Assembly: GCF_963665055.2 (NCBI RefSeq)
Contig: NZ_CAXXRN010000003.1
Span: forward strand, 10,326 to 74,325
Source: an uncultured Methanobacterium sp.
GTDB taxonomy: Archaea > Methanobacteriota > Methanobacteria > Methanobacteriales > Methanobacteriaceae
DNA: 64,000 bases
Reading direction: 5' to 3'
The notes below the pieces were generated by a model that searched no databases, was not told where the DNA came from, and worked only from the letters and a program-made list of their open reading frames with translations. Made by a program: the position numbers and the translations under genes. Positions 941 through 61,760 of the stretch are shown here, piece after piece; the first letter of the stretch is position 1; each line of letters starts with the position of its first letter.

Positions 941-1258
941 AAGAGCACTTCCTTAAATTTTCATGTGAAACTGTTTGAATACAATTCAATAAGGCAACTT
1001 CAATAATACAAATGAATTTAATTACCTGATTAATTTTAAATATGGTCTTATTAATATGGTTTTAATTATAATATGGTCTTAAATCCGTATTTTTATTAAT
1101 GTAAAATCTGCTTTAAACTGTTGCTTAGATGGGTATTAGCAATAGATTTATCTAACGTAACTACTCCCATAGATTATTTAACATAATTACTCCATTTAAG
1201 AGGATTACCTAAATAGGTACCCCATTTAAGGAGGGAATTAATTAACATAACTACTCAT

Positions 1259-38205: not shown

Positions 38206-39421
38206 GTGGCTTGTTAAAATCATTTCCATTGCCAACCGTTACAATTCCATTGTTTAAATAGTACTGGTTGTATTGTACACTGTATTTTCCATCTTCACGT
38301 ATGTTTAGGGTGTTATTATCTATGTTAAGGTATTTTACATTGTGGTTTTCCATAGCTATGCCTATAACCGGATCATTGATGGTGTTGTTGGCGATAGTGG
38401 CAGATAATGTGCCATCAACTGGAGTACCCTTTCCAGTTATATTTATCCCGGTTAAAAGGATGTCATGGATAGTGTTTCCAGAAATAGTGCCGTTAAAGTT
38501 TCCTCCAATGAATATACCGTAATATACATTAACTATGGAATTGTTAGCCACCAGGGTGTTGGTGGCAGTTTCCATGGCACCCCTGTTAACCAGGGAGATA
38601 CCATCGTGATTACCATAGGAAGCAGAGGTCATGTTGCTGATGGAATTACCAACAACGGTCAGGTTCTGGTACTGGTGATTGATGTTGATCCCATCATCAA
38701 TATTGGAGATGGTATTATTTTTTATGAGGCTACTGAAAACGTAAGATCCATCTATACCGTTTAAATAACCGTAACAGCCATCGATCTGGTTATTGGTTAT
38801 AGTAAACCCGGATCCTTCTATATGCACTCCACCGGGGCTGTTGTATATTATGTTTTTGTCTATAAGGATGTTATTTTTACTGGATGTGGAACCCGTGTCT
38901 GTGATGTAAATTCCATAGCTGGGGTTTAGCTCAGTGTTATTGTAGATTCCATTTGATTTTATGGAGCTTTCATTGACATTGTTAAAGTAAATGCCCCGTA
39001 CCAGGTTGTTAAATGTGTTGTTTTCAATATTGATACGCGATGTTTTGCTTGCGTTGATACCATAACTGCCAGTGTTGGAGTCCACTCCATTCATGGTAAA
39101 TCCGGTGATGTTGGTTCCAGAGGCATTAGTACCGCTAATGGTGATAATTGTTGAATCAACATTACTGTTTAAAATAGCACCTAATCCTACCAGATTAACT
39201 GAGACTTTAGTTATGGTTAACGAAATATTGTTGTAGACTCCTGCCAGGAAATTCAGGGTATCTCCCGCATTACAGTAGTTAATTATAGTTTGAATATCAC
39301 TATTTGTCATGGATGAAGTAACATTGTAAGTTGCAGCAGACACCGGCTCACAAAATACAGTCCCTAAAGGGATAACTGCAGCCATTAAAAATAGTAACAC
39401 TCCTATTTTAATTTTTTTAAT
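36149..39421 (-). CDS. Secreted right-handed beta-helix (NosD/PbH1 repeat) surface protein, adhesin-like
   Basis: Signal peptide ending VSA; two beta-helix modules; C-terminal NATNNWWG...VNYTPW. Track start GTG 39400; in-frame ATT 39421 proposed. Confidence 0.9.
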   Translation of the reverse strand: MKKIKIGVLLFLMAAVIPLGTVFCEPVSAATYNVTSSMTNSDIQTIINYCNAGDTLNFLAGVYNNISLTITKVSVNLVGLGAILNSNVDSTIITISGTNASGTNITGFTMNGVDSNTGSYGINASKTSRINIENNTFNNLVRGIYFNNVNESSIKSNGIYNNTELNPSYGIYITDTGSTSSKNNILIDKNIIYNSPGGVHIEGSGFTITNNQIDGCYGYLNGIDGSYVFSSLIKNNTISNIDDGININHQYQNLTVVGNSISNMTSASYGNHDGISLVNRGAMETATNTLVANNSIVNVYYGIFIGGNFNGTISGNTIHDILLTGINITGKGTPVDGTLSATIANNTINDPVIGIAMENHNVKYLNIDNNTLNIREDGKYSVQYNQYYLNNGIVTVGNGNDFNKPQNFIVASTMNNTYVQSLINSARVGDTVTFLTGTYNNMALTISKALNLEGNGAVLKGTGTSSIISVTGSDASGTTITGFTVANATGAAGISVDSANNVNIINNTATGNVVGIQLINTGNSVLINNKVDSNGWVGVLVRNGTGNTVDSNLVSNNQEGVVLQGSSDDNHVTHNVIKNNTWNGVLITDNSDNNTVSENSEISGNNIGVSVSGSSGNTIEGNNVTENHWAGVATYNSSKNTIKDNKISNNQEGVVLQGSSDDNHVVHNVIKDNAWNGVLVPDAISTGNQVVNNTEISGNDVGVKMYYSSGNTVQGNNVSGNSWAGIWLYNTTNTSVNSNTVSNNQEGVVLQSYSTDNLVTGNTIKNNTWNGILIPDATSTGNQILNNTEISGNNVGIDLFNAIGNFVQGNNVTVNKWAGIWVYNGVNNAINNVNTVSNNPEGVFIENSSNITVSGNTLVNNLRNGVYISNSSQVQVTGNLNISGNQVGVGLVGSFGNQITNNNVSGNSWLGIWANNAHDSTISANLISGNGEEGVLIENGAYGITVSQNTIQNNTAHGIIIIGASSNTIGNNTQISGNNIGILLQNANGNNITSNLVNKNTWMGVCLLDTSLDNQILSNNITENPIGVRVDTDSSTNTVNSNSITGSSQYGLTYAGTSNTLNATNNWWGSNDNPSAQIQGNVNYTPWTTH

Positions 39422-40081
39422 CCAAATTCCTCCTTTTACTTTTTTATCATTTTACCTTTAAATCCAATTTTAATCAAAAACTTCATATACCCACATTATG
39501 ATTATTTTAAACATTAAAAATATCCTGATGACTCTAAAATGACTTTAAAATATTTAATTCAATAAAATACTGAACAAATGATTATTAATCTAAAATTCTG
39601 CTGTTAATACCATTCGTATCCATATACCACACACCATCATCATTGAATTCCCAATAAATCGAAATGTATATTATTATAATTCGATTAAATTTAGTATTTA
39701 ACAGCTATTATAAATAAATTTCTAGAGAAAAAAAGAGAGTTAAAAAGATCAAAAATACTATATAAACACTTAATTTCTAATATAATGAAATTTAAACTTC
39801 TAAGATGAACATATCGAAAATAAAGAGTTGAATTTTAAAGTTTATGCTCGATATGTTTATATATGATCTTCAATAAAACATACTAATTACACAAGAAGAA
39901 GGATGCAAGATATCTAGTTCATTCAAATAAGAATTATTTTTTTTATAATTTAAGTTAAAGGCTTTTATGATGATTAAATAAAAAATACGGGTTAAATCAC
40001 AAATAAATGGGCATCTTCTTCTTTTCAGAGTAAAAAAGATGATATTAATCTAATTCACACGATATAGGAGCAAACAGTAAG

Positions 40082-43000
40082 ATGTTAAAAAATAAAAAAG
40101 CAATAATCTCACTGCTTTTAATAATATCTTCCTTTCTGGTTATGGGAACGGTAAGTGCTGAGGATCCTGTTGCTAATTGGACAAACAACTCCACAAATAG
40201 TACTAATCTAACTCTTAACCTGACTGATAACTCCACAGATAATGGTACTACTAATGCCAACTACGGTAGTGGGTCTAATGCAGAAAATTCCGTGGATTTC
40301 TCTGTAGAAAATCTAAACAGTACCATTGCTGAGTTTACCGCCAACAACAGTAGTCCTGTGACATCATGGAAATGGGACTTTGGCGACAGAACCACATCCA
40401 CCCAGCAAAAACCCACCCACAACTACTACCAGTCCGGGAGTTATCTGGTTAGTTTAACTGCAAATTTAACCAATGGCAGCGTAGCTACCGTGAATAAAAC
40501 CATTATTGTGGATGTGAAATCCCCAACCGCCAATGCCAGCCTCAATGGAGGCACATTCAATAACACACAAACAATTAACCTAACAGCGAGTGATGATAAT
40601 AACAATACAGTGATTTACTACACCACCGACGGCACAAACCCACAATCGAGTAACAGCAGAATCATTTACACCACACCCATTGTTTTAAACAATACAACCA
40701 CCCTGATATTCGCTGCACAGGATATTTCAGGCAAATGGAGCCAGTTGTACACTGAAAACTACACCATCATTCATTTTATTTATGCCAGTGACAACCAGAC
40801 CACTATACAGGCCATCCTGGATAATGCATCCCCTGGAAGCACCGTAGTATTTTCAGGAACGAACTATGAAAACCTGCATCTTGTAATCAATAAAAAATTG
40901 AATATAATCAGCTATGTGGGAACAAAAATTGTAACGATCAACGCTATAGGAACAGCGACCTACATCGATGATGGTGAAACTCGAACAGTTACTATTTATG
41001 ATACAGCCACTTCCCCAGTGTTTACCATAAAGGGGAGTCATGCGTCTGGAACCACGATAAGTGGGTTTACAATTTTTACAGACACTGATTCTGGAATATT
41101 CGTCAATAACTCCACTAATATTGTTATTTCACAGATGAACATTACTTCGGTTAATGGAACTGCAATCACCGTAAATGGTAGCTCGAACATCACCATCCTA
41201 TACAACAACCTTACTAACTCATACAACGGGATATGTATTTCTGAATCCAACAGTACTAATATTGTGGGAAACAACATTACAGGATACCAGAAAAACAATA
41301 TTTACCTTAAAAAGTCTCAAATTACCTACATTCAGGAAAATGACATCAACAGCACTTTCAGTGGGGTTAAAGTTCAAACCTGCTGTAACACCCAGATCAA
41401 TGGAAATAACATAACTACTGATATTAATGGGGGTAATTCAACAGTATTTTCCAACCCTAGCTTTGAAGATGGTTTAACTGGATGGGATACTGGTTCAGAA
41501 CTCAGCACAGTTAGAGTCAACGATGGTACATACAGTATTTTCCTGTCCCATAATGGCTACGTGCAGCAGGCGGTAGACTTAACCTCAATTGGTGTTATTT
41601 CATTCTGGGGATTCTGTGTGGAGGTTAGTTCCGTGGGAGGAACATTTGAATTGTACATTGATGGCCTTCTGGTTGGAACATTTGAAGTGAATAATGTCAG
41701 TCAAGAACACAAATGGGTACAATTCACCTGTAATTTCAATCCAATTTACTCTGGAAACCACACTGTGACTGTGAAGTGGATCGGGCCACACAGTGCTTAT
41801 ATAGATGATTTTTCTTCAGGAACCAGTAAAAATTCAGCTAATTTCACAGCTACAGTTACCAACAGCGAAACTGACCCCCTGACAGTGCAGTTTACTGACA
41901 CTTCTTCTGGTCTGGTGGACAGTTGGTTGTGGGACTTTGGTGATGGAACAACATCCACCGACCAAAACCCGGTACACACCTTCACCAAACTGGGAGTTTA
42001 CACTGTAAGCCTCACTGTAACCGGCCCCTACTATAATTCAACTGTAACCATGAAGGATCTCTTCAACATTGGTGGACCAGTGAACAACCGGACCGGGAAA
42101 ATTTACAACAACATCCCGGAAGCCATTGATGATATCGATACCATTGATGGTGACACCATACTGGTGGGCAACCATTCATACCTGGAAACTTACACCGAGA
42201 ATGTGAATGTAACTAAAAGGGTGAATATAATCAGCCAGGGCATGGTGATAATCACAGCCGCCGATATAAATCAACCTGTTTTTAACATCCTTCCCGGAGG
42301 GTTGGGTTCGCTCATCAGCGGATTCACCATAACCGGAGCAACTGGCTCCAGTGGAATTTACCTATCCCCCGGGTCCAGTGCCACCATAACCAGTAACATC
42401 ATCACCGGCAATAAAGTGGGAATTTACATCAATAACGCGGCATCAACTATTCATTTCAACGTTATTTACGATAATGACCTCTACGGTTTAATGTTCACTG
42501 GCAGCGGTGTGGAAGCATCTAATAACTGGTGGGGAACCAACAATCCCACCTACAAAAATGGCCTGACTGCCCCTGGAAAAACCGATATATACGAAGTCTC
42601 GACTGATAATCATGCCACCAATGACCCCTGGATTGTGTTAAAAGTAAATGTTTCTGATATTCTCCTAAAAGAGAATGCAACTTCCATAATTACCGCAAAT
42701 TTCGCCACCAACTCCCGGGGTGAGGATACTTCAAATTCTGGTAGTATCCCCTCAATACCTGTGGGATTCAGTTACGCTTTGGGAGAATTTAAAATATCTG
42801 GCACTGATGCCAGTCGTTCTGTAACTGTGAAAACCAGTAAAGGAAAAGCAACAACCACCCTAACTGCTGGTAGTCGGAGTGGATCCAGTTACTTGGTAGT
42901 TGCTGTTTGTGATGATGCTGTGAACTCTCTGGTAACTGTTGACACTATTGCACCAACTGTAAACACCACTTTAGAGGGAGGCCACTACAGTTCAGCCCAG

Positions 43001-47097: not shown

Positions 47098-50000
47098 TTA
47101 AAAAGGTAAACTGGTATAAACTCCATTTAACTGTAAACTAGAAGTATTCCAATTGTTTATAACCCCCAGCTTATTTTCAGTACTGGTTGCATCTGCAAAA
47201 ACCCAATCACCTGTAATGTAGAGACTTGCCCATACATATCCAACCTTAGTTCCATTATCATTAAGGTAAGTTCCAAACACGTATTGTGCTGGTATGGCTG
47301 ATGCTCTGCATAATGCAATTAGAAGATGAGTTATATCCACACAGTTACCTGATCCATAGTTCATAGTTTCTGCAGCACCCTTCTGTGTGTTATAATAGAA
47401 TTGGTAGGTTATATTGTCTTTCACCCAGTTGAATATTTTATTTGATTTCTCCCAGGCAGTGACTGAACCAGTAGTGATGTTATGAGCCAGTGAAATTATC
47501 CCTGCATCATCTGCCTGGCAGTTAGAGGTTGCTGATATAAGTTCTTCCAATCCTGGAGGCACATAAACGATTTGTGAGGTTGAAGGGTGGTTATCCAAAT
47601 TGTCTCCTCCCGCTACCTGCCGGGGATCTGTACTGTTCCAGTCACTGTAGTAGTTTCCATCAGTTCCATTATCCCACTGGTTGGTACCATCATCATAAGC
47701 CAATATAAGAGTGTTTAAAAGGTTGTTAATGTATATCAGATTATTTACACTGCCCTGCATTCTTATACCATAGCCATTGCCTTTTTTGATGGTATTCCCC
47801 ATTATAGTGTTACTGTTTGAACCATAACCTGAATAAATCCCATCCCAAGTTTCGTTGAAGATGTAATTATCACTTATTGTATTGTTAGATGAATTCTGGA
47901 GGAATATTCCAACGTGACTGTCACCTAATGTATTGTCAGCTATAACGGATTCTCCGGCAGTTTCTAAACTTACATCACTCCATAAATTCCCATTTATATT
48001 ATTGTTAAGAATTCTATTGTAACTGGAAGTCCCAATAATGATTATTCCGTGTGCAGTGTTGTTCTGAATAGTATTCTGACTCACCGTGATACTGTAAGCA
48101 CCATTTTCAATCAGAACACCTTCTCCACCATTACCAGAAATCACATTTCCACTAACTGTAGAATCATGAGCATTATTAGCCCACACACCCAGCCAGCTGT
48201 TGCCAAATATGTTGTTGTTACTGATCTGACTATCAGATGATCCAACCAATCCTACACCCACCTGATTACCTGAGATATTAGTGTTACCTGAAACCTGAAT
48301 TAGAGAACTATTAGAAATGTAAACCCCATTTCTAAGATTATTCACTAAAATATTTCCATTTACAACAGTATTTGAACTGTTTTCAATGAATATGCCTTCA
48401 GGGTTCGCAGAAACAGTGTTACCATTGGTGATTGTGTTGTTCACACCATTGCAAACCCAAATACCAGCCCATTTATTCGCAGTAACATTGCTACCCTGGA
48501 CAAAGTTTCCAATAGCATAGAACAGATCTATTCCCACGTTGTTTCCAGATATTTCAATGTTATTTGCTATTTGATTGTCATTACTGGTTGCATCCGGTAT
48601 GAGAATTCCATTCCAGGTGTTGTTTCGAACAATATTCCCAGTTATGTTATTGTTATTTGCATTGTTTTGCAGAACAATTCCTTCCTGGTTGTTGGAAACT
48701 GTGTTACCATTTACAGAGGTGTTTGTGGTATTATAAAGCCAGATTCCAGCCCAACTATTCCCAGAAACATTATTACCCTGTACCGTGTTTCCGCTTGAAT
48801 AATACATCTTAACACCAACATCATTTCCAGAAATCTCTGTGTTATTCACAACCTGATTACCAGTACTAGTAGCATCCGGTACAAGAACACCATTCCAAGT
48901 GTTATCCCTAATAGTGTTACCAGTCACAAGGTTATTACTGGAAGAATTCTGCAGTACAACACCTTCCTGGTTGTTGGAAACCCTATTGGAAGCAATGGTG
49001 TTTCCAGTACCATTGTACACCAGTATACCAACCCAGCTGTTGGAATCAACATCGTTGTTATAAACTGTGCTTTGAACTGCGTTTGTGAGCTGTATCCCCA
49101 CAACATTACCAGTTAAAGTGTTGTTAGTGATGGTTACATTGTTTGTTGAGTCCACATTTATTCCGCTGGATCCAGTTGCATTAGAAATAGTGAATCCTGT
49201 AACCGTGGTTCCAGATGCATCCAGACCAGTGATGAATATAACAGGATATCCCTCATTACCGCTCAATATAGCTTCGTTACCCACCAGGTTAAGTGAATGA
49301 GTTATGATTAGAGATATTTTGTTATAGGTTCCACTTAAGAATGTAACAAAATCTCCTGCACCCGCACCATCAAGAACGTCCTGAATATCTTCACTGGACA
49401 TACTGGAATTTACTAAGAAATACGATGGATTAATAAACGCACCAGTAAAGACTGTTTGATTGTTAGTTGTGGCAATTATGGTAACTGTTCCCGTGACCAA
49501 TCCTGCAGTGAACATTGCAGAAGCAATTCCATTAAATGAAGCTTTTACGTTTTTGTCAAATGTTCCAAGATCTGACTGGAAATACACCAGAGATCCATTG
49601 GGTATGTGACCTATAGCTGGATCTAAAGTTGTCACTTCGGTTCCATTAAACAGGTTGTTGAAACTTACAGTAACCAGACTGGTCTGAGTCTTATTGATTG
49701 TTGTGGGACTGGCAAGAATGGTCATGTAGATCCATGGGGAGTAATTTGCTGTTCCACTGATTAAACTGGCAAAATCCGGACTGTTAGAACCCCACCAGTT
49801 GTACTGTGAATTTACTATTCCACTGGTGGAGTATATTGAATATCCTTTACCGAACATAATGCTATTGTAATGTATTTCACTGTTAGCCCCATTATTGTAT
49901 AGAAAATTACCAGAATTAGCCAAGTTTTGACTGACCAATGAATCGGTGATTACTAGGGTTTTTTTCCGATTATTAACAGATTCTAAATTGTAAACAGCAC

Positions 50001-52479
50001 CTCCAGCAGCAGTTGCAATGTTATCTTTTAATGTGGAATTTTTAATAGTTACAGTTCCTGTGCTGCAACATATGCCAATTGCACCACCATTTACTGCAGT
50101 GTTATTAGTAAATAGAGAATTATCCACCATGGTTACTGCTGTTGCATAAACTGCTCCCCCTGTAACTGTTGCAGTGTTACAGGTGAATGTGGAGTTGTTT
50201 ATGGTAAGTCTGCCGATGATATTATCCATCGCACCACCATTCTGGGCAGTGTTGCTGGTGAAGTTGCATCCGGTTACAGTCACTGTACTGGAATAACTGT
50301 CAATTGCACCCCCTGAACCATTTAAGGCAGTGTTGAAACTGAAGAACGAATTGTAAATGAGGGTGACTGATTCATCATCATTATTAATTGCACCACCATC
50401 AATATTGGCACTATTACCTGAAAAAGTGCAGTTGATTACAGTTAAAGGCCCGTCATCATCATTACATAGGGCACCACCATAAGTGGCAGTCCCATTGATG
50501 AAAATACAGTTCATCACGTTGCACGAAGCGTAGTAGTAGTTGTCTATAGCACCTGCAGAACCGTTGGTAGCACTGTTTCCATGGAAAATGCTGTCAGATA
50601 CCGTAGCTGTGCTGTAGAAGTCGTTGTTAATGGCACCAGCATACCTTTCTGCAGTGTTGGATGTGAAAGTAGAGTTATTTACACCCATAAATCCATAATT
50701 GTCATTGGTAATTGCACCACCATAATATGAGGCAGCATTGGATGTGAAAATACAATTCGACACATTAAGAGTGGTTATTGTGCCATTATAAACCTCAGTA
50801 ATGAGTAATCGAAGTTCCCTGTCATCTGTACGGTAAATACGCAGACTACTGTAATCATAACTGCATATAGCTCCACCAAAAGTTGCGGTGTTTCCTGTGA
50901 ATGTGCTACTGGTTACACTGAGGTTGCTGCCATCATAATTGAAGATAGCTCCACCAGAATCATTATTTGCAGTGTTAGATGTGAAAATACTGCTTTCTAT
51001 ACTGGCAATTCCATTGTTAAAAATAGCTCCCCCATCACCAGCTGTTCCTGCTTTGAATGTAGAGCTTGTGATGTTCAATACTCCTGTGTTGTGTATGGCT
51101 CCACCATTGGTGGTTGCAGTGTTACCAGAGAAAGTGCTTCCAGATACTGTTACCAGTACGATTGAAGTGTTATTATTATAAATAGCTCCACCAAATTCTG
51201 TGGCAGTGTTGTTTACAAAATAAGAGCTTTCTATATTTAATGTGCTGTCCCCGTAGTTTTCAATAGCCCCCCCATTTACTGCAGTGTTGTTAATGAAAAT
51301 ACAATCCTCCATGGACAGAAAACTACCTGGTCCGTTATCTATAGCCCCCCCACTGGTGCCTGCATTGTTAGACGTGAATTTACAGTCATTTAAAGCCATT
51401 TTACTCAGGTAATTACTGATAGCACCTCCTTTGATTGTTGCACTGTTACCAGAGAAGATGCAATCAGTTATAATTGCCGTGCTGTAGTTGTGGTTATTTA
51501 TAGCACCACCTGACTGGTATGCGCTGTTACCCGTGAATGTGCATCCAGTTATATTTACGCTGCCTGCAATGGGCGCATCTTTCCAGTTATCTATTGCACC
51601 ACCATAGCGTGCCCCGCAGCTGTTTTCTGTAAACTTACTGTCAATTACTGTTAAACTATTTGAATTGTGATTATCTATTGCACCACCACCATTACCCGCC
51701 TTGTTACTGTCAAAAGTTGTGTTAACAATGGTTAAATTAGCTGAACTTCCAAAGTTGTAGATTGCTCCACCATTGGAGCTGATAGCAGTATTCTGATTGA
51801 TATGGGAGTTCTGAATGTTTAAGGTTCCGCTGTTGTAGATTGCACCACCATTGCCCTTTGCCTTATTTTGGCTGATACTGCTGTTTTGAATGTTAAGTGT
51901 TCCAGTGTTGTAAATTGCACCACCATCATATGCCCAGCCCACACTGGACGAAGCAATGTTTCCAGTGATACTGCAGCTATCCAAGTACATTGTTCCGCTG
52001 TTGTATATGGATCCCCCGTAGCTTGATGTTGCATTGGTTAATGTCACATTTTTCAGAATGAATGTTACGCCTGGTTGAATAGTGAATATTTGGGCCAGGT
52101 TATAAGCATTGATTACTGTTCCGTTTTGACTTTCTCCAATTAAAGATAAATTCCGTGTTATTTGGATATTAGTATTATTTTCACCACCGTATACCCCATT
52201 AGCAACATATACTGTACCATTATCAACCACAGTACCAGTAGCATTTTTTATGGATAACTTCGGCCCATCACCAGTTAAATTATTGTACACTGGATCTTGA
52301 CCGTTGTAGGAGTCATTTCCAGTTTCATTGTTCACATAGATTATCCCAGAATCAGCAGAAACCGTTCCCAAACCAAAAATCAATATTAGTGTAAGAAATA
52401 AAATAACTGTAAGAATAAACTTTTTATTCCCCAATTTAGGCATATTATGCCCTGTTCCATTAATGATTCCCTTTAAAAT
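47098..52479 (-). CDS. Secreted adhesin-like protein: GGAI/FxxN (Pmp-like) repeats, NosD module, C-terminal transglutaminase-like domain
   Basis: Signal peptide ending VSA; many GGAI...F..N repeats; GNCVD and GYVW...DAT. Track start ATG 52443; in-frame ATT 52479 proposed. Confidence 0.9.
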   Translation of the reverse strand: MLKGIINGTGHNMPKLGNKKFILTVILFLTLILIFGLGTVSADSGIIYVNNETGNDSYNGQDPVYNNLTGDGPKLSIKNATGTVVDNGTVYVANGVYGGENNTNIQITRNLSLIGESQNGTVINAYNLAQIFTIQPGVTFILKNVTLTNATSSYGGSIYNSGTMYLDSCSITGNIASSSVGWAYDGGAIYNTGTLNIQNSSISQNKAKGNGGAIYNSGTLNIQNSHINQNTAISSNGGAIYNFGSSANLTIVNTTFDSNKAGNGGGAIDNHNSNSLTVIDSKFTENSCGARYGGAIDNWKDAPIAGSVNITGCTFTGNSAYQSGGAINNHNYSTAIITDCIFSGNSATIKGGAISNYLSKMALNDCKFTSNNAGTSGGAIDNGPGSFLSMEDCIFINNTAVNGGAIENYGDSTLNIESSYFVNNTATEFGGAIYNNNTSIVLVTVSGSTFSGNTATTNGGAIHNTGVLNITSSTFKAGTAGDGGAIFNNGIASIESSIFTSNTANNDSGGAIFNYDGSNLSVTSSTFTGNTATFGGAICSYDYSSLRIYRTDDRELRLLITEVYNGTITTLNVSNCIFTSNAASYYGGAITNDNYGFMGVNNSTFTSNTAERYAGAINNDFYSTATVSDSIFHGNSATNGSAGAIDNYYYASCNVMNCIFINGTATYGGALCNDDDGPLTVINCTFSGNSANIDGGAINNDDESVTLIYNSFFSFNTALNGSGGAIDSYSSTVTVTGCNFTSNTAQNGGAMDNIIGRLTINNSTFTCNTATVTGGAVYATAVTMVDNSLFTNNTAVNGGAIGICCSTGTVTIKNSTLKDNIATAAGGAVYNLESVNNRKKTLVITDSLVSQNLANSGNFLYNNGANSEIHYNSIMFGKGYSIYSTSGIVNSQYNWWGSNSPDFASLISGTANYSPWIYMTILASPTTINKTQTSLVTVSFNNLFNGTEVTTLDPAIGHIPNGSLVYFQSDLGTFDKNVKASFNGIASAMFTAGLVTGTVTIIATTNNQTVFTGAFINPSYFLVNSSMSSEDIQDVLDGAGAGDFVTFLSGTYNKISLIITHSLNLVGNEAILSGNEGYPVIFITGLDASGTTVTGFTISNATGSSGINVDSTNNVTITNNTLTGNVVGIQLTNAVQSTVYNNDVDSNSWVGILVYNGTGNTIASNRVSNNQEGVVLQNSSSNNLVTGNTIRDNTWNGVLVPDATSTGNQVVNNTEISGNDVGVKMYYSSGNTVQGNNVSGNSWAGIWLYNTTNTSVNGNTVSNNQEGIVLQNNANNNNITGNIVRNNTWNGILIPDATSNDNQIANNIEISGNNVGIDLFYAIGNFVQGSNVTANKWAGIWVCNGVNNTITNGNTVSANPEGIFIENSSNTVVNGNILVNNLRNGVYISNSSLIQVSGNTNISGNQVGVGLVGSSDSQISNNNIFGNSWLGVWANNAHDSTVSGNVISGNGGEGVLIENGAYSITVSQNTIQNNTAHGIIIIGTSSYNRILNNNINGNLWSDVSLETAGESVIADNTLGDSHVGIFLQNSSNNTISDNYIFNETWDGIYSGYGSNSNTIMGNTIKKGNGYGIRMQGSVNNLIYINNLLNTLILAYDDGTNQWDNGTDGNYYSDWNSTDPRQVAGGDNLDNHPSTSQIVYVPPGLEELISATSNCQADDAGIISLAHNITTGSVTAWEKSNKIFNWVKDNITYQFYYNTQKGAAETMNYGSGNCVDITHLLIALCRASAIPAQYVFGTYLNDNGTKVGYVWASLYITGDWVFADATSTENKLGVINNWNTSSLQLNGVYTSLPF
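48030..49420 (-). repeat. Shared NosD beta-helix module, copy 2 (3' part replaced)
   Basis: Long near-identical stretches with 52739..54515; diverges after NNTAHGIIIIG. Confidence 0.85.
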
Positions 52480-52738
52480 TTAGTTCCCTCCATTTATTAA
52501 TTGGACATGAAGTTCAATGCGTGTCGATCATTATGTATTTACAACCAATATATAGTTTAACTCTTAGATTTTTCTTGTAAAAAAGAATAAATAGTAGACA
52601 TAGTCCATTTATATGGTTATAATGAGTTTATTTTCAAAAAAAATCAATTAATATATGACAATTGAATAAAAACTTTAAATCTGATTTTAAAAAAAAGCAA
52701 ACGGGGAAAAATGAATTCCCCTTAAAAAAATATTTTTT

Positions 52739-54515
52739 CTATTTTGTTGTCCATGGTGTGTAGTTTACGTTTCCCTGTATCTGTGCACTGGGGTTGTCAT
52801 TGGATCCCCACCAATTGTTGGTGGCGTTAAGTGTGTTACTGGTTCCAGCATAGGTTAAACCATACTGATTACTACCAGTGATACTGTTGTTGTTCACAAC
52901 ATTGGTAGAACTGTCCGTATCAACACGCACTCCAATAGGATTCTCAGTGATGTTATTAGACAAAATCTGATTATCCAAGGAGGTATCCAAGAGACATACT
53001 CCCATCCAAGTGTTGTTTTTCACCTGATTAGACGAGATTATGTTTCCATTAGCATTCTGAAGAAGAATACCAATGTTATTCCCAGAAATCTCCGTATTGT
53101 TGTCGATAGTATTGTTACTAGCACCAACAATGATTATTCCATGCGCAGTGTTGTTCTGAATAGTATTCTGACTCACAGTGATACCATAAGCACCATTTTC
53201 AATCAAAACACCTTCTTCACTACCTGAAATCGTGTTCCCACTAACTGTGGAGTTGTGTGCATTGTTTGCCCATACTCCTAACCAGCTGTTACCAGTTATA
53301 ATGTTGTTTTCAACCCGAACATCAGAAGATGATCCAGCTATTCCAACACCCACCTGATTACCTGAGATATTAGTGTTACCTGAAACCTGAATTAGAGAAC
53401 TATTAGAAATGTAAACCCCATTTCTAAGATTATTCACTAAAATATTTCCATTTACAACAGTATTTGAACTGTTTTCAATGAATATGCCTTCAGGGTTCGC
53501 AGAAACAGTGTTACCATTGGTGATTGTGTTGTTCACACCATTGTAAACCCAAATACCAGCCCATTTATTCGCAGTAACATTGTTACCCTGGACAAAGTTT
53601 CCAATAGCATTGAATAAGTCTATTCCCACGTTGTTTCCAGATATTTCAATGTTATTTGCTATTTGATTGTCATTACTGGTTGCATCCGGTATGAGAATTC
53701 CATTCCAGGTGTTGTTTCGAACAATATTCCCAGTTATGTTATTGTTATTTGCATTGTTTTGCAGAACAATTCCTTCCTGGTTGTTGGAAACTGTGTTACC
53801 ATTTACAGAGGTGTTTGTGGTATTATAAAGCCAAATGCCGGCCCAAATGTTCCCAGAAACATTGTTACCCTGTACTGTGTTTCCGTTGGAATAATACATC
53901 TTAACACCAACATCATTTCCAGAAATCTCAGTGTTATTCACAATCTGATTACCAGTACTGGTTGCATCAGGTATAAGCACACCGTTCCAGGTGTTGTTTT
54001 TGATGGTGTTACCAGTCACAAGGTTATTACTGGAAGAATTCTGCAGTACAACACCTTCCTGGTTGTTGGAAACCCTATTGGAAGCAATGGTGTTTCCAGT
54101 ACCATTGTACACCAGTATACCAACCCAGCTGTTGGAATCAACGTTGTTGTTATAAACTGTGCTTTGAACTGCGTTTGTGAGCTGTATCCCCACAACATTA
54201 CCAGTTAAAGTGTTGTTACTGATGGTTACATTGCTGGTAGAATCAACACTTATTCCAGCGGTTCCAGTTGCATTAACAACTGTGAATCCGGTTATTGTTG
54301 TTCCAGATACATTCAAACCAGTGACACTAATAACCGGGAGAGTTCCAGTACCACTCAAGATTGCGCCTTTGCTCACAAAGTTAAGTGTATGGGTGATGCT
54401 CAATGCCATGTTGTTGTAAGTTCCATTGAGGAACGTAACAACATCCCCTATACCTGAAGAATCTATAACAGCCTGAATTTCAGCACTGGACATGCTAGGA
54501 TTCACTAAGAAGTAC
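52739..54515 (-). repeat. Shared NosD beta-helix module, copy 3
   Basis: Ends SAQIQGNVNYTPWTTK, versus ...PWTTH in copies 1 and 4. Confidence 0.9.
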
Positions 54516-57500
54516 TCGGGGTTAATAATCACATCAGCATACACTGTTTGATTATCAGCTGTTGCATTTATGCTAGCTGTTCCAGGTACTACTCCAGCAT
54601 CAAATAGTGCAGAAGCAGTTCCATTAAATGTGGCCGTTACGTTTTTATCAAATTTTCCAAGATCTGTCTGGAAATACACCCAAGATCCATTGGGTATGTG
54701 ACCTATAGCTGGATCTAAAGTTGTCACTTCGGTTCCATTAAACAGGTTGTTGAAGTTGACAGTGACCAGACTACTCTGAGTCTTGTTGATTGTTGTGGGA
54801 CTGGCAAGAATGGTCATGTAGATCCACGGTGAGTAATTTACAGTTCCACTGATTAAACTGGCAAAATCTGGACTGTTTGAGCCCCACCAGTTGTATCTTG
54901 CGTCAACAATGCCACTACCTTTGTAAATAACAGTTCCAATACTTGCTATGTTTCCACTGAAATAGTTGTACTCAAGAACTGTTGATGGAGAACCACTAAA
55001 GATCGCACCACCATAAGTAACTGCTGTATTATTAATGAAAATGCTGTTAGTCACTGAGGAAGAAGTTCCACGATTATAAATAGCACCACCATTTGCTCCA
55101 CTGTTATTCATAAATACACTGTTGGTAACAATGAGATTTCCGCGAGAATAAATCGCCCCACCACTGTAACTACCACTACCAGCAAGTATGTTTGCGGTGT
55201 TGTTTACAAATGTGCAGTTGATTATATTTAAAGGCGAACTAACCTCATTACTGCAAATAGCACCACCACGCGCATTGTCGACCAACGCAGCATTGTTGTA
55301 GAATGTGGAGTTAACTGCAGTTACTAAATTACCAGTAGTGTATATTGCACCTGCAAAACCACCAGCAACATTATCACCGAACACAGAATTACTTACAGTT
55401 AAAGTACCACTGCTACCAGTATTATATAACGCGGCACCATTGTAAGAGGCAGTGTTATTTGAAAATGTGCCATTTATGACATTTACAGTACCTCCATTAT
55501 TATAGACGGCACCACCACTCTTATTAACACCTGCATTACGGGTAAATGTACTGTTAGTGATTAATAATGTCCCTATATTGTAAATTGCTCCGCCACCATA
55601 GCTAGTTGAGGTAGCATTGTTTCCAGAAAGGTTACAGTTTAGAACATTCAAAATTCCACTGTTGTATATAGCACCACCAGTATCGGCATTACCAGCCGTA
55701 ATAGTCAAATTCTCAATGGTAACTGTCACGGTAGATGGAATATTAAATACATTTCCCAATGCCAATGCATCTATAATTGTACCATGTTCACTACTACCCC
55801 TAATGGAGGCATTCTGATTTATAGTGATACCATGATCACCAGTCAAATTGTAGGTCCCATTAGCCAAGTAAACAGTTCCATTAACATTCAAAACACTCAA
55901 AGCCTGCTTAAGAGTTTGATATGGGTTAATTTGACTACCATCACCCGTAGTATCATTACCCGTAGGTGAAACGTAAACAGTGTTTAATCCCAAAGTAACC
56001 AGTGCAGACAATGTTTGCTGGTTGACAGCGGCTGTAACATTAGTCACACCACTAACACCAGAACCTGTTAGGTTCACCTGTGACTTACCATTTACCAGAG
56101 TACCATTGGTAATAGTTCCAAGAGTAGTTGCAAATGTTACATTTGTACCATCAGGGACATGACCCTGACTGGAAATGTCATTCCCATTACTATCATGGGT
56201 TAAATCCACAGTTATCTCTGATGTTCCATCTGAAGCAACAACAGTTGGAGATGCAGTTATATTTGCCACCATCCAAGGTGAGTAATTTGCTGTTCCACTA
56301 ATTAAACTGGCAAAATCTGGACTGTTTGAGCCCCACCAGTTGTATTTTAAGTCAGCACTGCCCATGTTTGTAATTACACTACCTGTAGGTGCACTGTTTC
56401 CAACAAAGGTGTTGTAGTAGGCAACCAGGGTTGCAGTGTTGTCAATTACTCCACTTTTACTTGCTGCAGTGTTGTTGGTGAAAGTACAACCAGTCATGTT
56501 GAGAGTACTGCTATCCCAGTTTTCAATAACTCCACCGGTAGTTGCAGTGTTGTTAATGAATATGGAATTTAACACAGTTAATGCACTGTTAGGGTCATTA
56601 TCAATTGCACCACCTATTGGGGAGGTGTTGTTGATAAAGGTAGATCCAGTTATGGTCATGGTGCTTTTGAAATTGCTTACTGCACCACCGCAGATAACTG
56701 CACTGTTGTTGATGAAAGTGCAGTCGGTTATAATTGCGGTACTGTAATTGTGGCTGTTAATAGCTCCTCCGTAACCTCGGCTGGTACTTGTAACAGTGTT
56801 TCCGGTGAAAGTACATCCGGATATATTGATTGAACTGGAATCCCATATACTGACTGCACCTGCTCTTTCGGCAGTGTTGTTGGTGAATGTACAGTTGATC
56901 ACAGTTGCTGTGCAACCATCATCCACGTTGAAAGCACCACCAGACTGCATAGCACTGTTTTTGATGAAAGTACAGTTTATCACCAGGACATTACCCACAG
57001 TACCAGATTTCCAGTTGTCAATTGCACCACCGTGACGTGTTCCGCAGCTGTTTGAGTAGAAGTAACTGTTGGTCAGTGTAACATTCTGGTAGTCGTAATT
57101 GTCTATGGCACCTCCACCATTACCTGCGTAATTGCTGTTAAATGAGCTGTTGTTAATGTTCAGTGTTCCGCTGTTGTAGATAGCGCCACCATTACCTGAA
57201 GTTGCGGTGTTCTGGTTGATGATTGAATCATTGATGGTTAATGTGCCGATGTTATAGATGGCTCCACCACCGGTACTGCTGGAAGTTGCTGTGTTTCCTG
57301 AAATGGTCACATTGGTGATTGTCAGGTTTCCACTGTTAGCAATTGCCCCCCCATTGGTGTATTTACCATTGATCAGAGTCATGTTGCTAATGTTTACGGT
57401 TACGTTGGATGGAATGATGAATATTACTCCCATATTTCCGGCATCAACTATGGTGTTAGCCTGTCCTGCTCCGAAAATACTTGCATTTCTTGTAACTGTG

Positions 57501-60500
57501 ACATTGTAATCACCGGGCAAGTTATAGGTCCCACTGACGAGATACACAATTCCGTTACTATTTATAACGCTGACTGCCTGTTGAATGGTCTGGTAAGGAT
57601 TGGATTCACTACCATCACCAGTCACATCACTACCAGTAGGGGACACATAGATTGTGCTTAAACCCATTACAATGGTTGATGTGGCGTTTTGGTGGTCTAC
57701 AGCAGTGGTGACATTGGCCACTCCACTAACACCTGAACCTACCAGGTTCATCTGTGCTTTGCCGTTTACAGTGGTTCCATTGGTTATATTACCAAGGGTT
57801 GTTTCAAAGATTACTGGGATACCATCTGGAATATGACCCTGGCTGGATGTATCATTACCCTTGTTATCATGAGTCATGTCTACTGTGATAACTGAAACAC
57901 CATCTGCAGCAATAATAGTAGGTGAAGCAGTTGTATTTGCTACAATCCATGCATTTACTGCTGCATTAATTTTTCCGGCTGTTTGAGGGTTAGTTCCATC
58001 TAAATTACTTCCCCACCAGTTATTTTCAGCATTGAATGAACCGCTTTTCTTGTTAAATACTGCCACACTACTGTTATCAACGATTCTGCAGAAGTTGATG
58101 TAAGTTGTACATGAATCACCAGCATTACAAACAGCTGATCCTCCACTTGATGCTGAGTTGTTGATGAATGTGGACTGCATTATGTAAACGGTTCCTTGTT
58201 TGTTTAAGATACCTCCACCGTAATCTGCGGTGTTATTGGTGAATATACTACCATTTACAGTGGTTGTTCCACCAGTACTATAGATTCCTGCACCCCAACC
58301 CACTGCAGTGTTGTTGGTGAATGCGCAATCTGTTACATAAGCTGTTCCAGCGCTGTAAATCGAAGCACCATTGTATGTAACGTAGTTGTTTGTAAACAAG
58401 CTATTATTCACATTTAATATTGAAGTACTATAGATTCCTGCACCTCTGGTTGCACTGTTACCCGTGAATATTCCGTTGTTGATGGTTAGTGTTCCAGTAC
58501 TGTATACTGCAGCACCATTTTCAGAATTAGATCCGGATAAAGTACTGTTACTCAGGTTTAAGTTTCCGGTGTTGTAAATTGCACCACCGTATGTAGCATT
58601 ATTCCCAGAAAGTGTACTGTTATTCATATACAGGGCTCCTGTATTGTAGATAGCGCCCCCATTAGTTGCATAGTTACCTGAGAACAAACTTTGGGTGATA
58701 TCTAACGTTCCGGTGTTGTATATGGCTCCTCCACCAAGAGTAGTGGAAGTTGAATTTCCATTGGATAGTATCAAATTTACAAGGTATAACGTTCCATCAT
58801 TGGATATCAAACTGCCGGTGCTGGTTGCGCCGTTAGTCAGTGTCATGTTTTTAATGGTTAACGTGACATTTGATGAAATGTTAAATATGTTGCCAAGTCC
58901 TTCTGCACTGATAATAGTGCTGTTTGCATCTACTCCACTTATTGTTGCGTTTCCAACAACGTTAAGGTTGTAATCACCCGGCAAGTTGTAGGTTCCATTG
59001 AATAAATGGATCAAAGTTCCATTTTCACTGAGTGCTTTCCCAACAGTCTGGTAAGGATTAGATTCACTACCATCACCAGTCACATCACTACCAGTTGGAG
59101 AAACAAATATTATTTTTCCAATGGCTACGGTTGTGGTGCTGTTTTGCTCATCAATTGTGGCTGTCACAGTAGCAATACCTCCAACACCAGATCCAGTGAG
59201 GTTAACTTTTGATTTACCATTAACTGTGGTTCCATTAGTTATGTTACCCAGTGTAGTTTGGAAGTTCACAGGAATTCCATCAGGAAGATGACCCTGACCT
59301 GAAGTATCGTTTCCATTACTGTCATGAGTTAAATCCACAGTGATGTCTGAAGTTCCGTTGTAGGATATTTCTACAGGTGATGTACTGACCGAGGACACTA
59401 TCCAGGGACCAACAGTCACGTTACCAGTGACGAAACTTGAAGGATTAGCGTTACTGCCCCACCAGTTCCAGGTAGCATTCACAGACCCACTGTTACAGTA
59501 GATAGCAGTGCTGTTTGCACCGATGCTGTTGAAATGCATAGCCACTATTCCACCTGTGTTGTATAATATTCCACCTGTGGTGGCAGTGTTAGCTTCAATT
59601 AGATTACTGGTCAAGAATGCATTTCCACCGGTAATATATGATACTCCACCGGAGTTGGTTGCATTGTTCTGCAGTAAACTGCTGCTGGCAACATTCACTG
59701 TGCCACCGCTACTGTAAACAACCCCACCATTACTGGCACTGTTGTTACTGAAGGTACAGTTTATCATTGCAGCATTAGCAGTGGTTCCAGTATTGACTAT
59801 TACCCCACCGTAACCTGTTGCAGTGTTGTTAGTGAATCCAGAATCATTCACAATTAAATTCCCATAACTGTTGTAAATAACACCACCGTATGAAGATGCG
59901 GTGTTTTTATCAAAGGAGGAATTACTCACTATTAAATTCCCGTAAGTATTGTAAACTACACCACCGTAAGTTGTTGCAGTGTTGTTGTTCAATACGGAAT
60001 TAGTGACTGTGAAATTTCCATAAGAATTGTAAACCACACCACCGTATCTGGTTGCAGCATTGCTGTTAACCGTACTGCTGTCGATATTTACAATTCCCTT
60101 ATTGTTATAGATTGCACCACCATTTCGGGCAGTGTTACTGTTTAAAGTACTGTTTTTGATGGTTACTGTTCCAGTATTGTAGATTGCTCCCCCACCAAGA
60201 GTACTTGAAGTGGATGTAGCTTTATTTCCTGAAACATTAGAATTTTCAATGGTTAAGGTTCCACTATTGTAGAAAGCACCACCACTGGCTGCAGACCCGT
60301 TGATAATTGTTAAATTTTCAAGGGTAACTGAAATACCAGATAGTATGGTGAATATCGATGAACCACTGGTGTTTCCATTGATTATTGTACCATTCTGGCT
60401 TGTACCGATTATGGTCATGTTGTTGGCTATGGTTATCCCTGATTCAGTGTAAGTTCCATCAGCAATATTAACCGTACCATTATTGGTTACTGTCCCAGTA

Positions 60501-60739
60501 GCATTCTTTATTGATAGCTTAGGACCGCTTCCAGTCACATTATCATAAACAGCACTTTGACCATCCCAGGAATCATTTCCACTGTTGTTATTCACGTAGA
60601 TTGTTCCGGGATCTGCTGAAACAGGACCCACGCCAAATGCAAAAATTATTGCAAAAAACAAAAAAATTGTAAGAATAAGTGTCTTATTCCCTAACTTAGG
60701 CCTTTTAGTTCCTGTTCTATTGATTGTTCCATTTTGAAT
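52739..60739 (-). CDS. Giant secreted adhesin-like protein (~2670 aa): repeated GGAI beta-helix and Ig-like units, C-terminal NosD module
   Basis: Three (F/Y)VSPTG.D.TGDGS..NPYQT units, repeated WWGSN/TVDLTHD/GH.PDG Ig-like linkers. Track start 60841 and ATG 60787 are alternatives to the proposed ATT 60739. Confidence 0.9.
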   Translation of the reverse strand: MQNGTINRTGTKRPKLGNKTLILTIFLFFAIIFAFGVGPVSADPGTIYVNNNSGNDSWDGQSAVYDNVTGSGPKLSIKNATGTVTNNGTVNIADGTYTESGITIANNMTIIGTSQNGTIINGNTSGSSIFTILSGISVTLENLTIINGSAASGGAFYNSGTLTIENSNVSGNKATSTSSTLGGGAIYNTGTVTIKNSTLNSNTARNGGAIYNNKGIVNIDSSTVNSNAATRYGGVVYNSYGNFTVTNSVLNNNTATTYGGVVYNTYGNLIVSNSSFDKNTASSYGGVIYNSYGNLIVNDSGFTNNTATGYGGVIVNTGTTANAAMINCTFSNNSASNGGVVYSSGGTVNVASSSLLQNNATNSGGVSYITGGNAFLTSNLIEANTATTGGILYNTGGIVAMHFNSIGANSTAIYCNSGSVNATWNWWGSNANPSSFVTGNVTVGPWIVSSVSTSPVEISYNGTSDITVDLTHDSNGNDTSGQGHLPDGIPVNFQTTLGNITNGTTVNGKSKVNLTGSGVGGIATVTATIDEQNSTTTVAIGKIIFVSPTGSDVTGDGSESNPYQTVGKALSENGTLIHLFNGTYNLPGDYNLNVVGNATISGVDANSTIISAEGLGNIFNISSNVTLTIKNMTLTNGATSTGSLISNDGTLYLVNLILSNGNSTSTTLGGGAIYNTGTLDITQSLFSGNYATNGGAIYNTGALYMNNSTLSGNNATYGGAIYNTGNLNLSNSTLSGSNSENGAAVYSTGTLTINNGIFTGNSATRGAGIYSTSILNVNNSLFTNNYVTYNGASIYSAGTAYVTDCAFTNNTAVGWGAGIYSTGGTTTVNGSIFTNNTADYGGGILNKQGTVYIMQSTFINNSASSGGSAVCNAGDSCTTYINFCRIVDNSSVAVFNKKSGSFNAENNWWGSNLDGTNPQTAGKINAAVNAWIVANTTASPTIIAADGVSVITVDMTHDNKGNDTSSQGHIPDGIPVIFETTLGNITNGTTVNGKAQMNLVGSGVSGVANVTTAVDHQNATSTIVMGLSTIYVSPTGSDVTGDGSESNPYQTIQQAVSVINSNGIVYLVSGTYNLPGDYNVTVTRNASIFGAGQANTIVDAGNMGVIFIIPSNVTVNISNMTLINGKYTNGGAIANSGNLTITNVTISGNTATSSSTGGGAIYNIGTLTINDSIINQNTATSGNGGAIYNSGTLNINNSSFNSNYAGNGGGAIDNYDYQNVTLTNSYFYSNSCGTRHGGAIDNWKSGTVGNVLVINCTFIKNSAMQSGGAFNVDDGCTATVINCTFTNNTAERAGAVSIWDSSSINISGCTFTGNTVTSTSRGYGGAINSHNYSTAIITDCTFINNSAVICGGAVSNFKSTMTITGSTFINNTSPIGGAIDNDPNSALTVLNSIFINNTATTGGVIENWDSSTLNMTGCTFTNNTAASKSGVIDNTATLVAYYNTFVGNSAPTGSVITNMGSADLKYNWWGSNSPDFASLISGTANYSPWMVANITASPTVVASDGTSEITVDLTHDSNGNDISSQGHVPDGTNVTFATTLGTITNGTLVNGKSQVNLTGSGVSGVTNVTAAVNQQTLSALVTLGLNTVYVSPTGNDTTGDGSQINPYQTLKQALSVLNVNGTVYLANGTYNLTGDHGITINQNASIRGSSEHGTIIDALALGNVFNIPSTVTVTIENLTITAGNADTGGAIYNSGILNVLNCNLSGNNATSTSYGGGAIYNIGTLLITNSTFTRNAGVNKSGGAVYNNGGTVNVINGTFSNNTASYNGAALYNTGSSGTLTVSNSVFGDNVAGGFAGAIYTTGNLVTAVNSTFYNNAALVDNARGGAICSNEVSSPLNIINCTFVNNTANILAGSGSYSGGAIYSRGNLIVTNSVFMNNSGANGGAIYNRGTSSSVTNSIFINNTAVTYGGAIFSGSPSTVLEYNYFSGNIASIGTVIYKGSGIVDARYNWWGSNSPDFASLISGTVNYSPWIYMTILASPTTINKTQSSLVTVNFNNLFNGTEVTTLDPAIGHIPNGSWVYFQTDLGKFDKNVTATFNGTASALFDAGVVPGTASINATADNQTVYADVIINPEYFLVNPSMSSAEIQAVIDSSGIGDVVTFLNGTYNNMALSITHTLNFVSKGAILSGTGTLPVISVTGLNVSGTTITGFTVVNATGTAGISVDSTSNVTISNNTLTGNVVGIQLTNAVQSTVYNNNVDSNSWVGILVYNGTGNTIASNRVSNNQEGVVLQNSSSNNLVTGNTIKNNTWNGVLIPDATSTGNQIVNNTEISGNDVGVKMYYSNGNTVQGNNVSGNIWAGIWLYNTTNTSVNGNTVSNNQEGIVLQNNANNNNITGNIVRNNTWNGILIPDATSNDNQIANNIEISGNNVGIDLFNAIGNFVQGNNVTANKWAGIWVYNGVNNTITNGNTVSANPEGIFIENSSNTVVNGNILVNNLRNGVYISNSSLIQVSGNTNISGNQVGVGIAGSSSDVRVENNIITGNSWLGVWANNAHNSTVSGNTISGSEEGVLIENGAYGITVSQNTIQNNTAHGIIIVGASNNTIDNNTEISGNNIGILLQNANGNIISSNQVKNNTWMGVCLLDTSLDNQILSNNITENPIGVRVDTDSSTNVVNNNSITGSNQYGLTYAGTSNTLNATNNWWGSNDNPSAQIQGNVNYTPWTTK

Positions 60740-61760
60740 TTTTTTCCCTCCTATTCTTTTTTTAACACGAATGATATGAAAATTCATGCATGTCGAAGTA
60801 TTGTGATAATATAATATAAAGTTAACTATAAAAAATTTCAATAACCCCTTGGGATTTGGTTTTGAGTTTTACTAGTTAGCATTATTCTTTTTTAATTGGA
60901 CGCATGACGAATTTAAGACATTTTTATACATTATTATGAGTATTAAAATTATTATAATCCTTTTCATTATAATTTAACGAACTAAAATTATTTCTGCAGG
61001 GAAAAATTACGTGATAATTTGTTTAAGACTTAAATTTTTGTTAATTAGATGTTTTCAGAATTATTATACACAAAATATGGGATAATAGAACATAAAATTG
61101 TAGAAGACATGATAATGATTGAATGGTTATTATAAAGATGTTATTTTTGGAATTTAGTCAAAAATTGGGAATATAATCTGATTCATGAATTGAAAACAAT
61201 CAATCAGTTTAAACCGAAAATAAAATAGATTAGTGAATTATATGATTAAATAACCCCAATAATTAACAAAAATGATAAAAAAAGTAAAATAAAGCAATTA
61301 AACTATGAACAAGATACAAACAACTAATAAGAAAAAACTGAATCAATAAAATAACTATACTTTAACTAAAAAGAGAGAATTAAAGAATATAACCTATTTA
61401 GTTAGCTATTATTAATTTTAAGAATTATAATCGATATATCATTAATTTAGATGATTATTATTGGAATAAACAACAGAAACTTATTAAAAATTTCCAAAAA
61501 TTACCGATTTAATGGCCTCTCAAAAACTCCCACCATATTACATTCACTATATGAATTAATCTGCATGTCAATTAAGTTTCCAATTACAATTTTAATATTT
61601 TTATAAACCAACACGATTCAACTAATCTATAAGCTTATCATAAAAATGAAAAAATGAAAATTCATATTCAAAAACTTTTCGTTATCTAAATTTAAAAAGT
61701 TAAAAAAAAAGGGAAAAGGAAAAAAGGAGAGAAAAAAAGAATTCTCCTTAAACTATTTTT

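Follow-up and report, generated by a model that had tools for sequence, protein, structure and literature searches.

Where does translation begin on three very large genes in which a strong Shine–Dalgarno (SD) sequence is followed, at the usual distance, not by ATG, GTG, or TTG but by ATT? The genes, numbered 1 to 3 here, lie on the minus strand of a 64,000-nt stretch of DNA (the window, to which all positions refer; GC 37.6%) from an uncultured Methanobacterium sp., and their open reading frames (ORFs) encode beta-helix, NosD, and Chlam_PMP repeats, as judged from Pfam matches and the ORF listing. The present analysis suggests that genes 1–3 are likely to initiate at the SD-positioned ATT, and that they do so within a genus-wide use of weak starts behind strong SDs. 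We favor this reading because of four lines of evidence: comparison within gene families, enrichment of ATT at the start position in a related genome, protein domains that are complete only when read from a near-cognate codon, and public gene models that are truncated.

Results

Candidate Start Sites of the Three Genes

The first-pass annotation of this DNA had singled out three copies of GGAGGR-N6-ATT on the minus strand, in frame with three adhesin genes. The copies are exact (Table 1), and each heads an intact ORF of 1090–2666 codons in frame with the ATT (stops at 36149, 47098, and 52739). The last G of GGAGG lies 7 nt from the ATT in all three genes, a spacing that had been proposed to match that of canonical starts and indeed does so: canonical starts in the window lie 6–8 nt from GGAGG (14514 at 8, 18387 at 6, 20266 and 22538 at 7), and 7 nt is the mode in a complete related Methanobacterium genome, G017. 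The 15-nt pattern occurs seven times in the window against 1.38 expected, a number that none of 100 shuffles reached; only the three named copies head a gene, the other four not being at gene starts. A further SD–ATT arrangement, GGAGGG-aatta-ATT at 1227–1243 (plus strand), heads a 104-codon ORF antisense to the gene at 1259–2731 and is probably a chance match.

The ATT start of gene 1 is a firm and well-supported case. Read from ATT 39421, the predicted product is (M)KKIKIGVLLFLMAAVIPLGTVFCEPVSA|A, a textbook signal peptide (KKIKIG...CEPVSA|A) in which a basic n-region precedes a hydrophobic core and an A-x-A-like cleavage site. The rival start is GTG 39400, the first canonical codon of the gene, in which case the SD–ATT pair would be coincidental; the annotation of an NCBI homolog with 70% identity (P0001) begins at the equivalent position (MLLFIATLV). 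We consider this improbable. The GTG lies 28 nt from GGAGG (27 from GGAGGA), with no other SD, and its product (MLLFLMAAV...) has no charged n-region; the KKIK of that region is encoded upstream of the GTG, so that starting at ATT restores it, as the first-pass annotation had argued.

Comparison with homologs points the same way. Throughout the gene 1 family (the window and five other genomes), the codon 7 nt past GGAGG is either ATT (window, L021, L024, and the second paralog L035/L037/L032) or ATA (L011/L033, L012, and L013), and a Lys-rich n-region comes next. At six loci in the five other Methanobacterium genomes the codons of this n-region show synonymous AAA/AAG changes, and the Lys-rich codons between ATT and the position of the GTG are thus kept while the first canonical codon shifts (codon 6, 8, 10, or 13); the near-cognate codon, by comparison, keeps its place relative to the SD in every copy. 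In four of the loci (L011, L013, L021, and L024) TAA directly precedes the ATT or ATA, so that no upstream start is possible there. The truncated public models of the gene 1 homologs, P0001 among them, resemble gene-caller artifacts.

Table 1. Coordinates of the three genes and of the elements around their candidate start sites
Feature	Position	Strand	Remarks
Gene 1, beta-helix adhesin-like	36149..39421	(-)	1090 codons from ATT; Pfam Beta_helix, NosD
SD GGAGGA, gene 1	39428..39433	(-)	GGAGG to ATT 7 nt; spacer atttgg
Proposed ATT start, gene 1	39419..39421	(-)	SD+7 position holds ATT or ATA in homologs
Rival start GTG, gene 1	39398..39400	(-)	first canonical codon; no SD at usable distance, no n-region
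Gene 2, adhesin-like	47098..52479	(-)	1793 codons from ATT; Chlam_PMP repeats, beta-helix, C-terminal transglutaminase-like domain
SD GGAGGG, gene 2	52486..52491	(-)	spacer aacTAA
In-frame TAA directly 5' of ATT, gene 2	52480..52482	(-)	rules out any upstream start
Proposed ATT start, gene 2	52477..52479	(-)	SD+7
Rival start ATG, gene 2	52441..52443	(-)	MPKLGNK...; without SD upstream
Gene 3, adhesin-like	52739..60739	(-)	2666 codons from ATT
SD GGAGGG, gene 3	60746..60751	(-)	spacer aaaaaa
Proposed ATT start, gene 3	60737..60739	(-)	SD+7
AGG codon, gene 3	60701..60703	(-)	aligns with gene 2 ATG 52443 (leader/N-terminus alignment)
Rival start ATG, gene 3	60785..60787	(-)	in frame, 16 codons upstream of ATT; without SD
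TATA-like TTTATATT	60813..60820	(-)	if a promoter, transcription start near 60787, as inferred from typical archaeal TATA-to-start spacing

The products of genes 1–3 are predicted to be adhesin-like surface proteins typical of Methanobacteriales: they are large and secreted, carry an N-terminal signal peptide and beta-helix or PMP repeats, and belong to multicopy paralog groups, the features that define this class. Their Pfam matches comprise Beta_helix, NosD, Chlam_PMP, Invasin_D3, and Transglut_core. Among public genomes, that of Methanobacterium sp. UBA8 is closest, with 96% amino acid identity over gene 1, its contig being cut at residue 53; the gene 3 start region has no match in the UBA8 genome, and a metagenome scan with the gene 1 N terminus gave no matches.

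Near-Cognate Codons at the Start Position Across Methanobacterium

In six Methanobacterium genomes, homologs of the window genes have ATT, ATA, or ACG at the place that ATG or TTG occupies in other copies. Conservation of SD-N6-ATT in homologs had been named beforehand as a check on ATT initiation, and what is conserved is the position: it is kept by a near-cognate codon that interchanges with ATG (L028, L057) and TTG (L068). Of 23 Methanobacterium genomes, 21 have matches to the N-terminal domain of the gene 2/3 type, at 2–30 places in each. Most of the 30 loci of this family examined (L040–L069) have ATT, ATA, or ATC as the codon 7–8 nt past the SD core, the canonical exceptions being the ATG of L057 and the TTG of L068, and three loci (L062, L064, and L069) have no in-frame canonical alternative.

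Many members of the gene 2/3 family have the SD GGAGGTGA, which contains an in-frame GTG three codons before the ATT or ATA. Gene callers pick this GTG, and the public proteins of the family accordingly begin MKKIRKQ... from within the SD. As a true start the GTG was rejected: it is out of frame in L062 and L069, and it cannot apply to the SDs of the window, GGAGGA and GGAGGG.

Counted over all nonredundant signal-peptide-like starts in the fetched loci and the window, ATT is found 16 times, ATA 11, ACG 8, ATC 1, ATG 8, GTG 2, and TTG 2; when only starts without an in-frame canonical codon upstream are taken, the counts are ATT 10, ATA 3, ACG 4, ATC 0, ATG 3, GTG 1, and TTG 0. Both sets describe families fetched by homology rather than an unbiased sample.

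The start type ACG is known from eukaryotes rather than bacteria. In a group of beta-helix paralogs, ACG follows GGAGGTGAAAAA in G002 (L026), G013 (L019), G017 (L027), and G023 (L020), while the copy in G001 (L028) has ATG at this place, which suggests ACG initiation in the group. ACG also stands at the start position in L029 (GGAGGTAAGAAA-ACG) and in L015/16/17/22 (GGGGGTGAAAAAG-ACG).

Enrichment of ATT at SD-Positioned Starts in a Complete Genome

For a genome-wide view, 2.77 of the 3.17 Mb (87%) of G017 was read. For every stop-to-stop ORF of at least 120 codons, each in-frame codon as far as the first canonical one, this codon included, was recorded together with how far it lay from a core SD 5-mer (aligned to AGGAGGTGATC). 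Canonical starts peak sharply 7 nt after GGAGG. At this distance the census contains ATG 212, TTG 40, ATT 24, GTG 17, ATA 9, AAA 8, TTT 7, AAT 4, ACG 3, TAT 3, and TTA 2 times, and ATT exceeds the triplets of the same composition, TAT and TTA, with p=6e-8. One codon earlier, at distance 4, where the spacer is untranslated, ATT, with 20 occurrences, is no commoner than AAT (25), TTA (22), or ATA (22); when ATT is compared with AT-only triplets at distance 7 versus distance 4, the odds ratio is 6.4 (p=1.4e-6). After a background of about 3 is allowed for, ATT is approximately as frequent as GTG and makes up about 8% of the SD+7 starts of G017. TTG, with 40 occurrences against 17, is more than twice as frequent as GTG at these starts.

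Two properties distinguish the near-cognate sites. The mean predicted SD:anti-SD pairing energy is -10.6 kcal/mol for ATT and -13.2 for ATA, versus -9.3 for ATG (p=7e-4 and 1e-6, respectively, against ATG), as expected if a strong SD compensates for a weak codon. In addition, signal-peptide-like N termini are found at 11 of the 24 ATT sites versus 32 of the 212 ATG sites (odds ratio 4.8, p=9e-4); they are also raised at TTG (14 of 40). Taken together, at predicted SD-positioned starts in Methanobacterium AUU is about as common as GUG, with AUA, AUC, and ACG rarer, and putative near-cognate starts favor signal-peptide proteins without being limited to them.

Housekeeping Genes with Putative Near-Cognate Starts

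Among the near-cognate genes of G017 are several for ordinary enzymes, with Pfam domains that already begin before the first canonical codon is reached. A GT20 (OtsA-like) gene with ATT at the start position has its domain from residue 16 and its first canonical codon at +37; for a dCTP-deaminase-like (DCD) gene, also with ATT, the corresponding figures are residue 15 and +29; for a response regulator (Response_reg) with ATA, residue 9 and +25; and for the class II ribonucleotide reductase (RNR; N-domain) with ATC, residue 9 and +15. In both of the last two, a stop codon directly precedes the near-cognate codon.

The class II RNR is instructive across lineages. At GGAGG plus 7 nt it has ATC, ATC, ATT, and ATT in four lineages (L209 at 301–303, from GCA_049723875.1; L210; L211; and G017:C1 near 621832, minus strand), and the residues I-K-S-K/R after the SD are constant among Methanobacterium class II RNRs; the loci outside G017 were taken from the contigs of public proteins. 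The public N termini, by comparison, vary: MSFNAL, MLQKRY, MQSSKGGTYIKSK, MGGTKIKSK, MFKGGTYI, MEGTYI, and MLFKGGTYI. In GCA_049723875.1 NCBI annotates the coding sequence from the ATC, and curated annotation has therefore admitted a near-cognate start at least once; other callers choose assorted upstream or downstream codons.

These genes bear on a further alternative, namely that the adhesin-like genes are decaying and have lost ATG as dispensable, untranslated paralogs. Adhesin-like genes are indeed numerous and variable, with 15–30 copies of the gene 3 type per genome. Decay is nonetheless very improbable, given intact ORFs of 1090–2666 codons with complete domain sets, a near-cognate codon and SD conserved across species, and the same start type on the essential RNR and other housekeeping genes.

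Alternative Starts of Genes 2 and 3

The ATT starts of genes 2 and 3 are probable, the case for each, taken singly, being somewhat better than even. Homology between the leaders of the two genes begins at TCGACAYGCAT and continues past the SD into coding sequence, with indels of 9 and 12 nt (52500–52640 and 60750–60900, minus strand), which indicates that the duplication that made both genes included the regulatory region. In gene 3 the stretch from the SD to the hydrophobic core is free of canonical codons, the next one in frame being a TTG inside the core; the first-pass annotation had pointed this out for the largest gene, together with the AGG at the position of the paralog's ATG, and the AGG is confirmed at 60703–60701. 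Upstream of the gene 3 ATT, a TTG at 60841 is in frame in addition to ATG 60787, and it too is without an SD. No canonical codon downstream of the SD gives a complete protein in genes 1 and 3, and this holds only in part for gene 2, in which ATG 52443 still gives a signal peptide.

Several observations weigh against ATT initiation. The signal peptide read from ATG 52443, 12 codons past the ATT of gene 2, looks normal and has a basic n-region. Over these 12 codons genes 2 and 3 differ, as counted by eye, at 3, 4, and 5 sites in codon positions 1, 2, and 3, with no clear third-position bias. Upstream of its ATT, gene 3 has a frame without a stop for 43 codons, for which the chance expectation in AT-rich DNA is roughly 2–5%. 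Archaeal promoters have a characteristic distance from TATA box to transcription start, and ATG 60787 lies about 26–33 nt downstream of the TATA-like TTTATATT (60820–60813), at the distance expected for a transcription start. Beyond these two genes, the enrichment of ATA alone in G017 does not reach significance (p=0.12); the family loci were obtained by homology to the window genes and are not independent samples; and the genome-wide statistics are those of a related genome (G017, GC 33%), not of the window's own (GC 37.6%).

For gene 2, these points raise the alternative that translation begins at ATG 52443 (MPKLGNKKFIL...), with the SD–ATT pair 36 nt upstream as a remnant or minor contributor, or that both starts are used. 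Besides the normal signal peptide and the lack of a clear codon-position bias, the fact that SDs are not universal in Methanobacterium, only about a third of long ORFs having scored with a strict 5-mer core, is in keeping with such a start. We nevertheless think it unlikely, though deserving of serious attention. No SD lies within 5–10 nt of the ATG, whereas a perfect GGAGGG stands 7 nt before an ATT that directly follows an in-frame stop; gene 3, with AGG in place of the ATG, yet retains the SD–ATT pair and the motif G-x-I-N-x-T-G; and a long basic n-region starting at the SD-positioned codon is the norm in the gene 2/3 family.

For gene 3, the corresponding alternative is a start at the upstream ATG 60787 (or TTG 60841), on an mRNA that might be leaderless or short-leadered, in which case GGAGGG would merely encode Gly-Gly within a long basic n-region (MNFHIIRVKKRIGGKKIQNG...). 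The 43 open codons and the placement of the TATA-like box speak for it, and for some family members (P0024 and P0026) the annotated start is an upstream ATG whose reading frame runs across the SD. Against it stand the lack of an SD at ATG 60787, the perfect SD at the modal 7 nt from the ATT, and the in-frame TAA in the homologous leader of gene 2, which makes this stretch noncoding there. Moreover, in the RNR genes the upstream ATG or TTG codons picked by callers vary by lineage while the near-cognate position is constant, so that read-through starts are often artifacts. On balance an upstream start of gene 3 also seems unlikely, about as much so as the ATG start of gene 2, and the SD-positioned ATT remains the preferred start of both genes.

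A programmed frameshift from the out-of-frame ATGs of ATGGAACA, which genes 2 and 3 have in common, was also examined and rejected: both frames stop after 13–24 codons. The distance from the SD hexamer to these ATGs is 13 nt in gene 3 and 25 nt in gene 2, and the letters are shared because the main frame encodes N-G-T-G.

Truncated Gene Models

Common gene callers admit only ATG, GTG, and TTG as starts, and it follows that the N termini of many Methanobacterium proteins will be cut or wrongly extended. That gene callers would misannotate these genes had been anticipated, and the public record bears this out. The public protein of gene 2 itself (P0013) is stored with 1745 residues; it begins MNNETGND, past the signal peptide, and therefore looks cytoplasmic. 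Of the 21 gene 2 homologs found, eight have been cut either within the signal peptide or beyond it, and the public homologs of the gene 1 N terminus nearly all have beheaded signal peptides (MVLTITTG..., MILTISTG..., MLLFIATLV...). The truncated NCBI adhesin-like homologs include P0001, P0002, P0005, and P0017.

Discussion

The arrangement of these start sites suggests a simple mechanism. The strong GGAGG SD would pair with the 3' end of 16S rRNA and place the codon 7 nt downstream, AUU, in the P site, where the initiator Met-tRNA (anticodon CAU) could form two Watson–Crick pairs with it and tolerate a mismatch at the third position. The protein would then begin with Met followed by the basic n-region, and the signal peptide would be removed on export. 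Archaeal aIF1 destabilizes complexes on non-AUG mRNA (PMC6237735), and initiation would be weaker than at AUG, a loss offset in part by the stronger SD. We infer that AUU is decoded as a start with Met as the first residue and that output is reduced. A dedicated initiator tRNA for AUU or AUA was considered and rejected: Aragorn, run on 87% of G017 (some stretches being masked), returned two CAU tRNAs and one Ile-GAU tRNA, and nothing unusual.

What such weak starts might be for is a separate question. The first-pass annotation had proposed translation-level throttling of very costly proteins. The excess of ATT on signal-peptide proteins and the stronger SDs at these sites agree with that proposal, but cytoplasmic enzymes, including the essential RNR, also have near-cognate starts, and the throttling of costly proteins, though plausible, is supported only in part. 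A more far-reaching possibility, which we advance only tentatively, is that near-cognate initiation constitutes a regular, selected part of the start repertoire of Methanobacterium, marked by extra-strong SDs, a preference for secreted proteins, and a majority in the adhesin-like families. Acceptance of ACG and AUH codons would then reflect eukaryote-like single-mismatch decoding by aIF1 and aIF2, and aIF1 activity could shift the whole set of surface proteins together.

If these starts are used as proposed, they have implications for both physiology and annotation. The pairing of weak starts with strong SDs on surface proteins is suggestive of tuning, at the level of translation, for a class of proteins that is expensive and variable. 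A genus in which AUU rivals GUG and ACG occurs at the start position would be a natural system in which to study how aIF1 and aIF2 tolerate near-cognate codons once the SD has fixed the position. In addition, inventories of methanogen surface proteins that depend on signal peptides probably undercount adhesin-like proteins; such inventories serve, for example, in the choice of vaccine targets against rumen methanogens.

Comparison with Known Systems

The window genes resemble the adhesin-like proteins of M. ruminantium M1, which are large secreted repeat proteins with beta-helix, Chlam_PMP-type, and Big or invasin-like domains and many paralogs (PMC2812497). The M1 paper makes no mention of unusual start codons, and its surface-protein counts were obtained with SignalP on called ORFs (PMC2812497), a procedure by which truncated N termini would be missed. 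A review of archaeal translation initiation names only AUG, GUG, and UUG as starts (PMC7531240). Our literature searches found nothing on AUU starts in Methanobacteriales or methanogens, and the methanogen genome papers checked made no mention of unusual starts. Three elements appear to be new: the scale, with near parity of AUU and GUG genome-wide and a near-cognate majority in adhesin-like families; ACG at the start position; and the link to secreted proteins and stronger SDs.

The classical AUU starts are those of Escherichia coli infC, which encodes IF3, and pcnB. Like them, the starts proposed here would be SD-positioned AUU codons read by the initiator tRNA, with weaker initiation, and they are missed by gene finders restricted to ATG, GTG, and TTG. 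Unlike E. coli, however, Methanobacterium is an archaeon with the eukaryote-type factors aIF1, aIF1A, and aIF2, and the candidate starts are not confined to one or two genes but make up some 8% of the SD+7 starts of G017 and most of those in the adhesin-like families, with ACG as well. A weak-start feedback through aIF1, like that of infC or eIF1, was rejected, since the aIF1 gene (SUI1, PF01253; G017:C1 331032, plus strand) starts with ATG; only a weak SD-like GAGGGAG lies upstream of it. NCBI translation table 11 does list ATT, ATC, and ATA as alternative starts; these have been applied to the RNR in GCA_049723875.1, but not to the adhesin-like homologs.

In eukaryotes, near-cognate initiation occurs at CUG, GUG, ACG, AUU, and AUA. 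The Methanobacterium starts would share with that process, which has been reviewed (PMC4705826), the acceptance of single-mismatch codons, including ACG and AUU, by Met-tRNAi under an eIF1-type fidelity factor. They would differ from it in two respects: it is the position relative to the SD, not scanning and Kozak context, that selects the codon, and the dominant mismatch, that of AUU, falls at the third position of the codon and not at the first.

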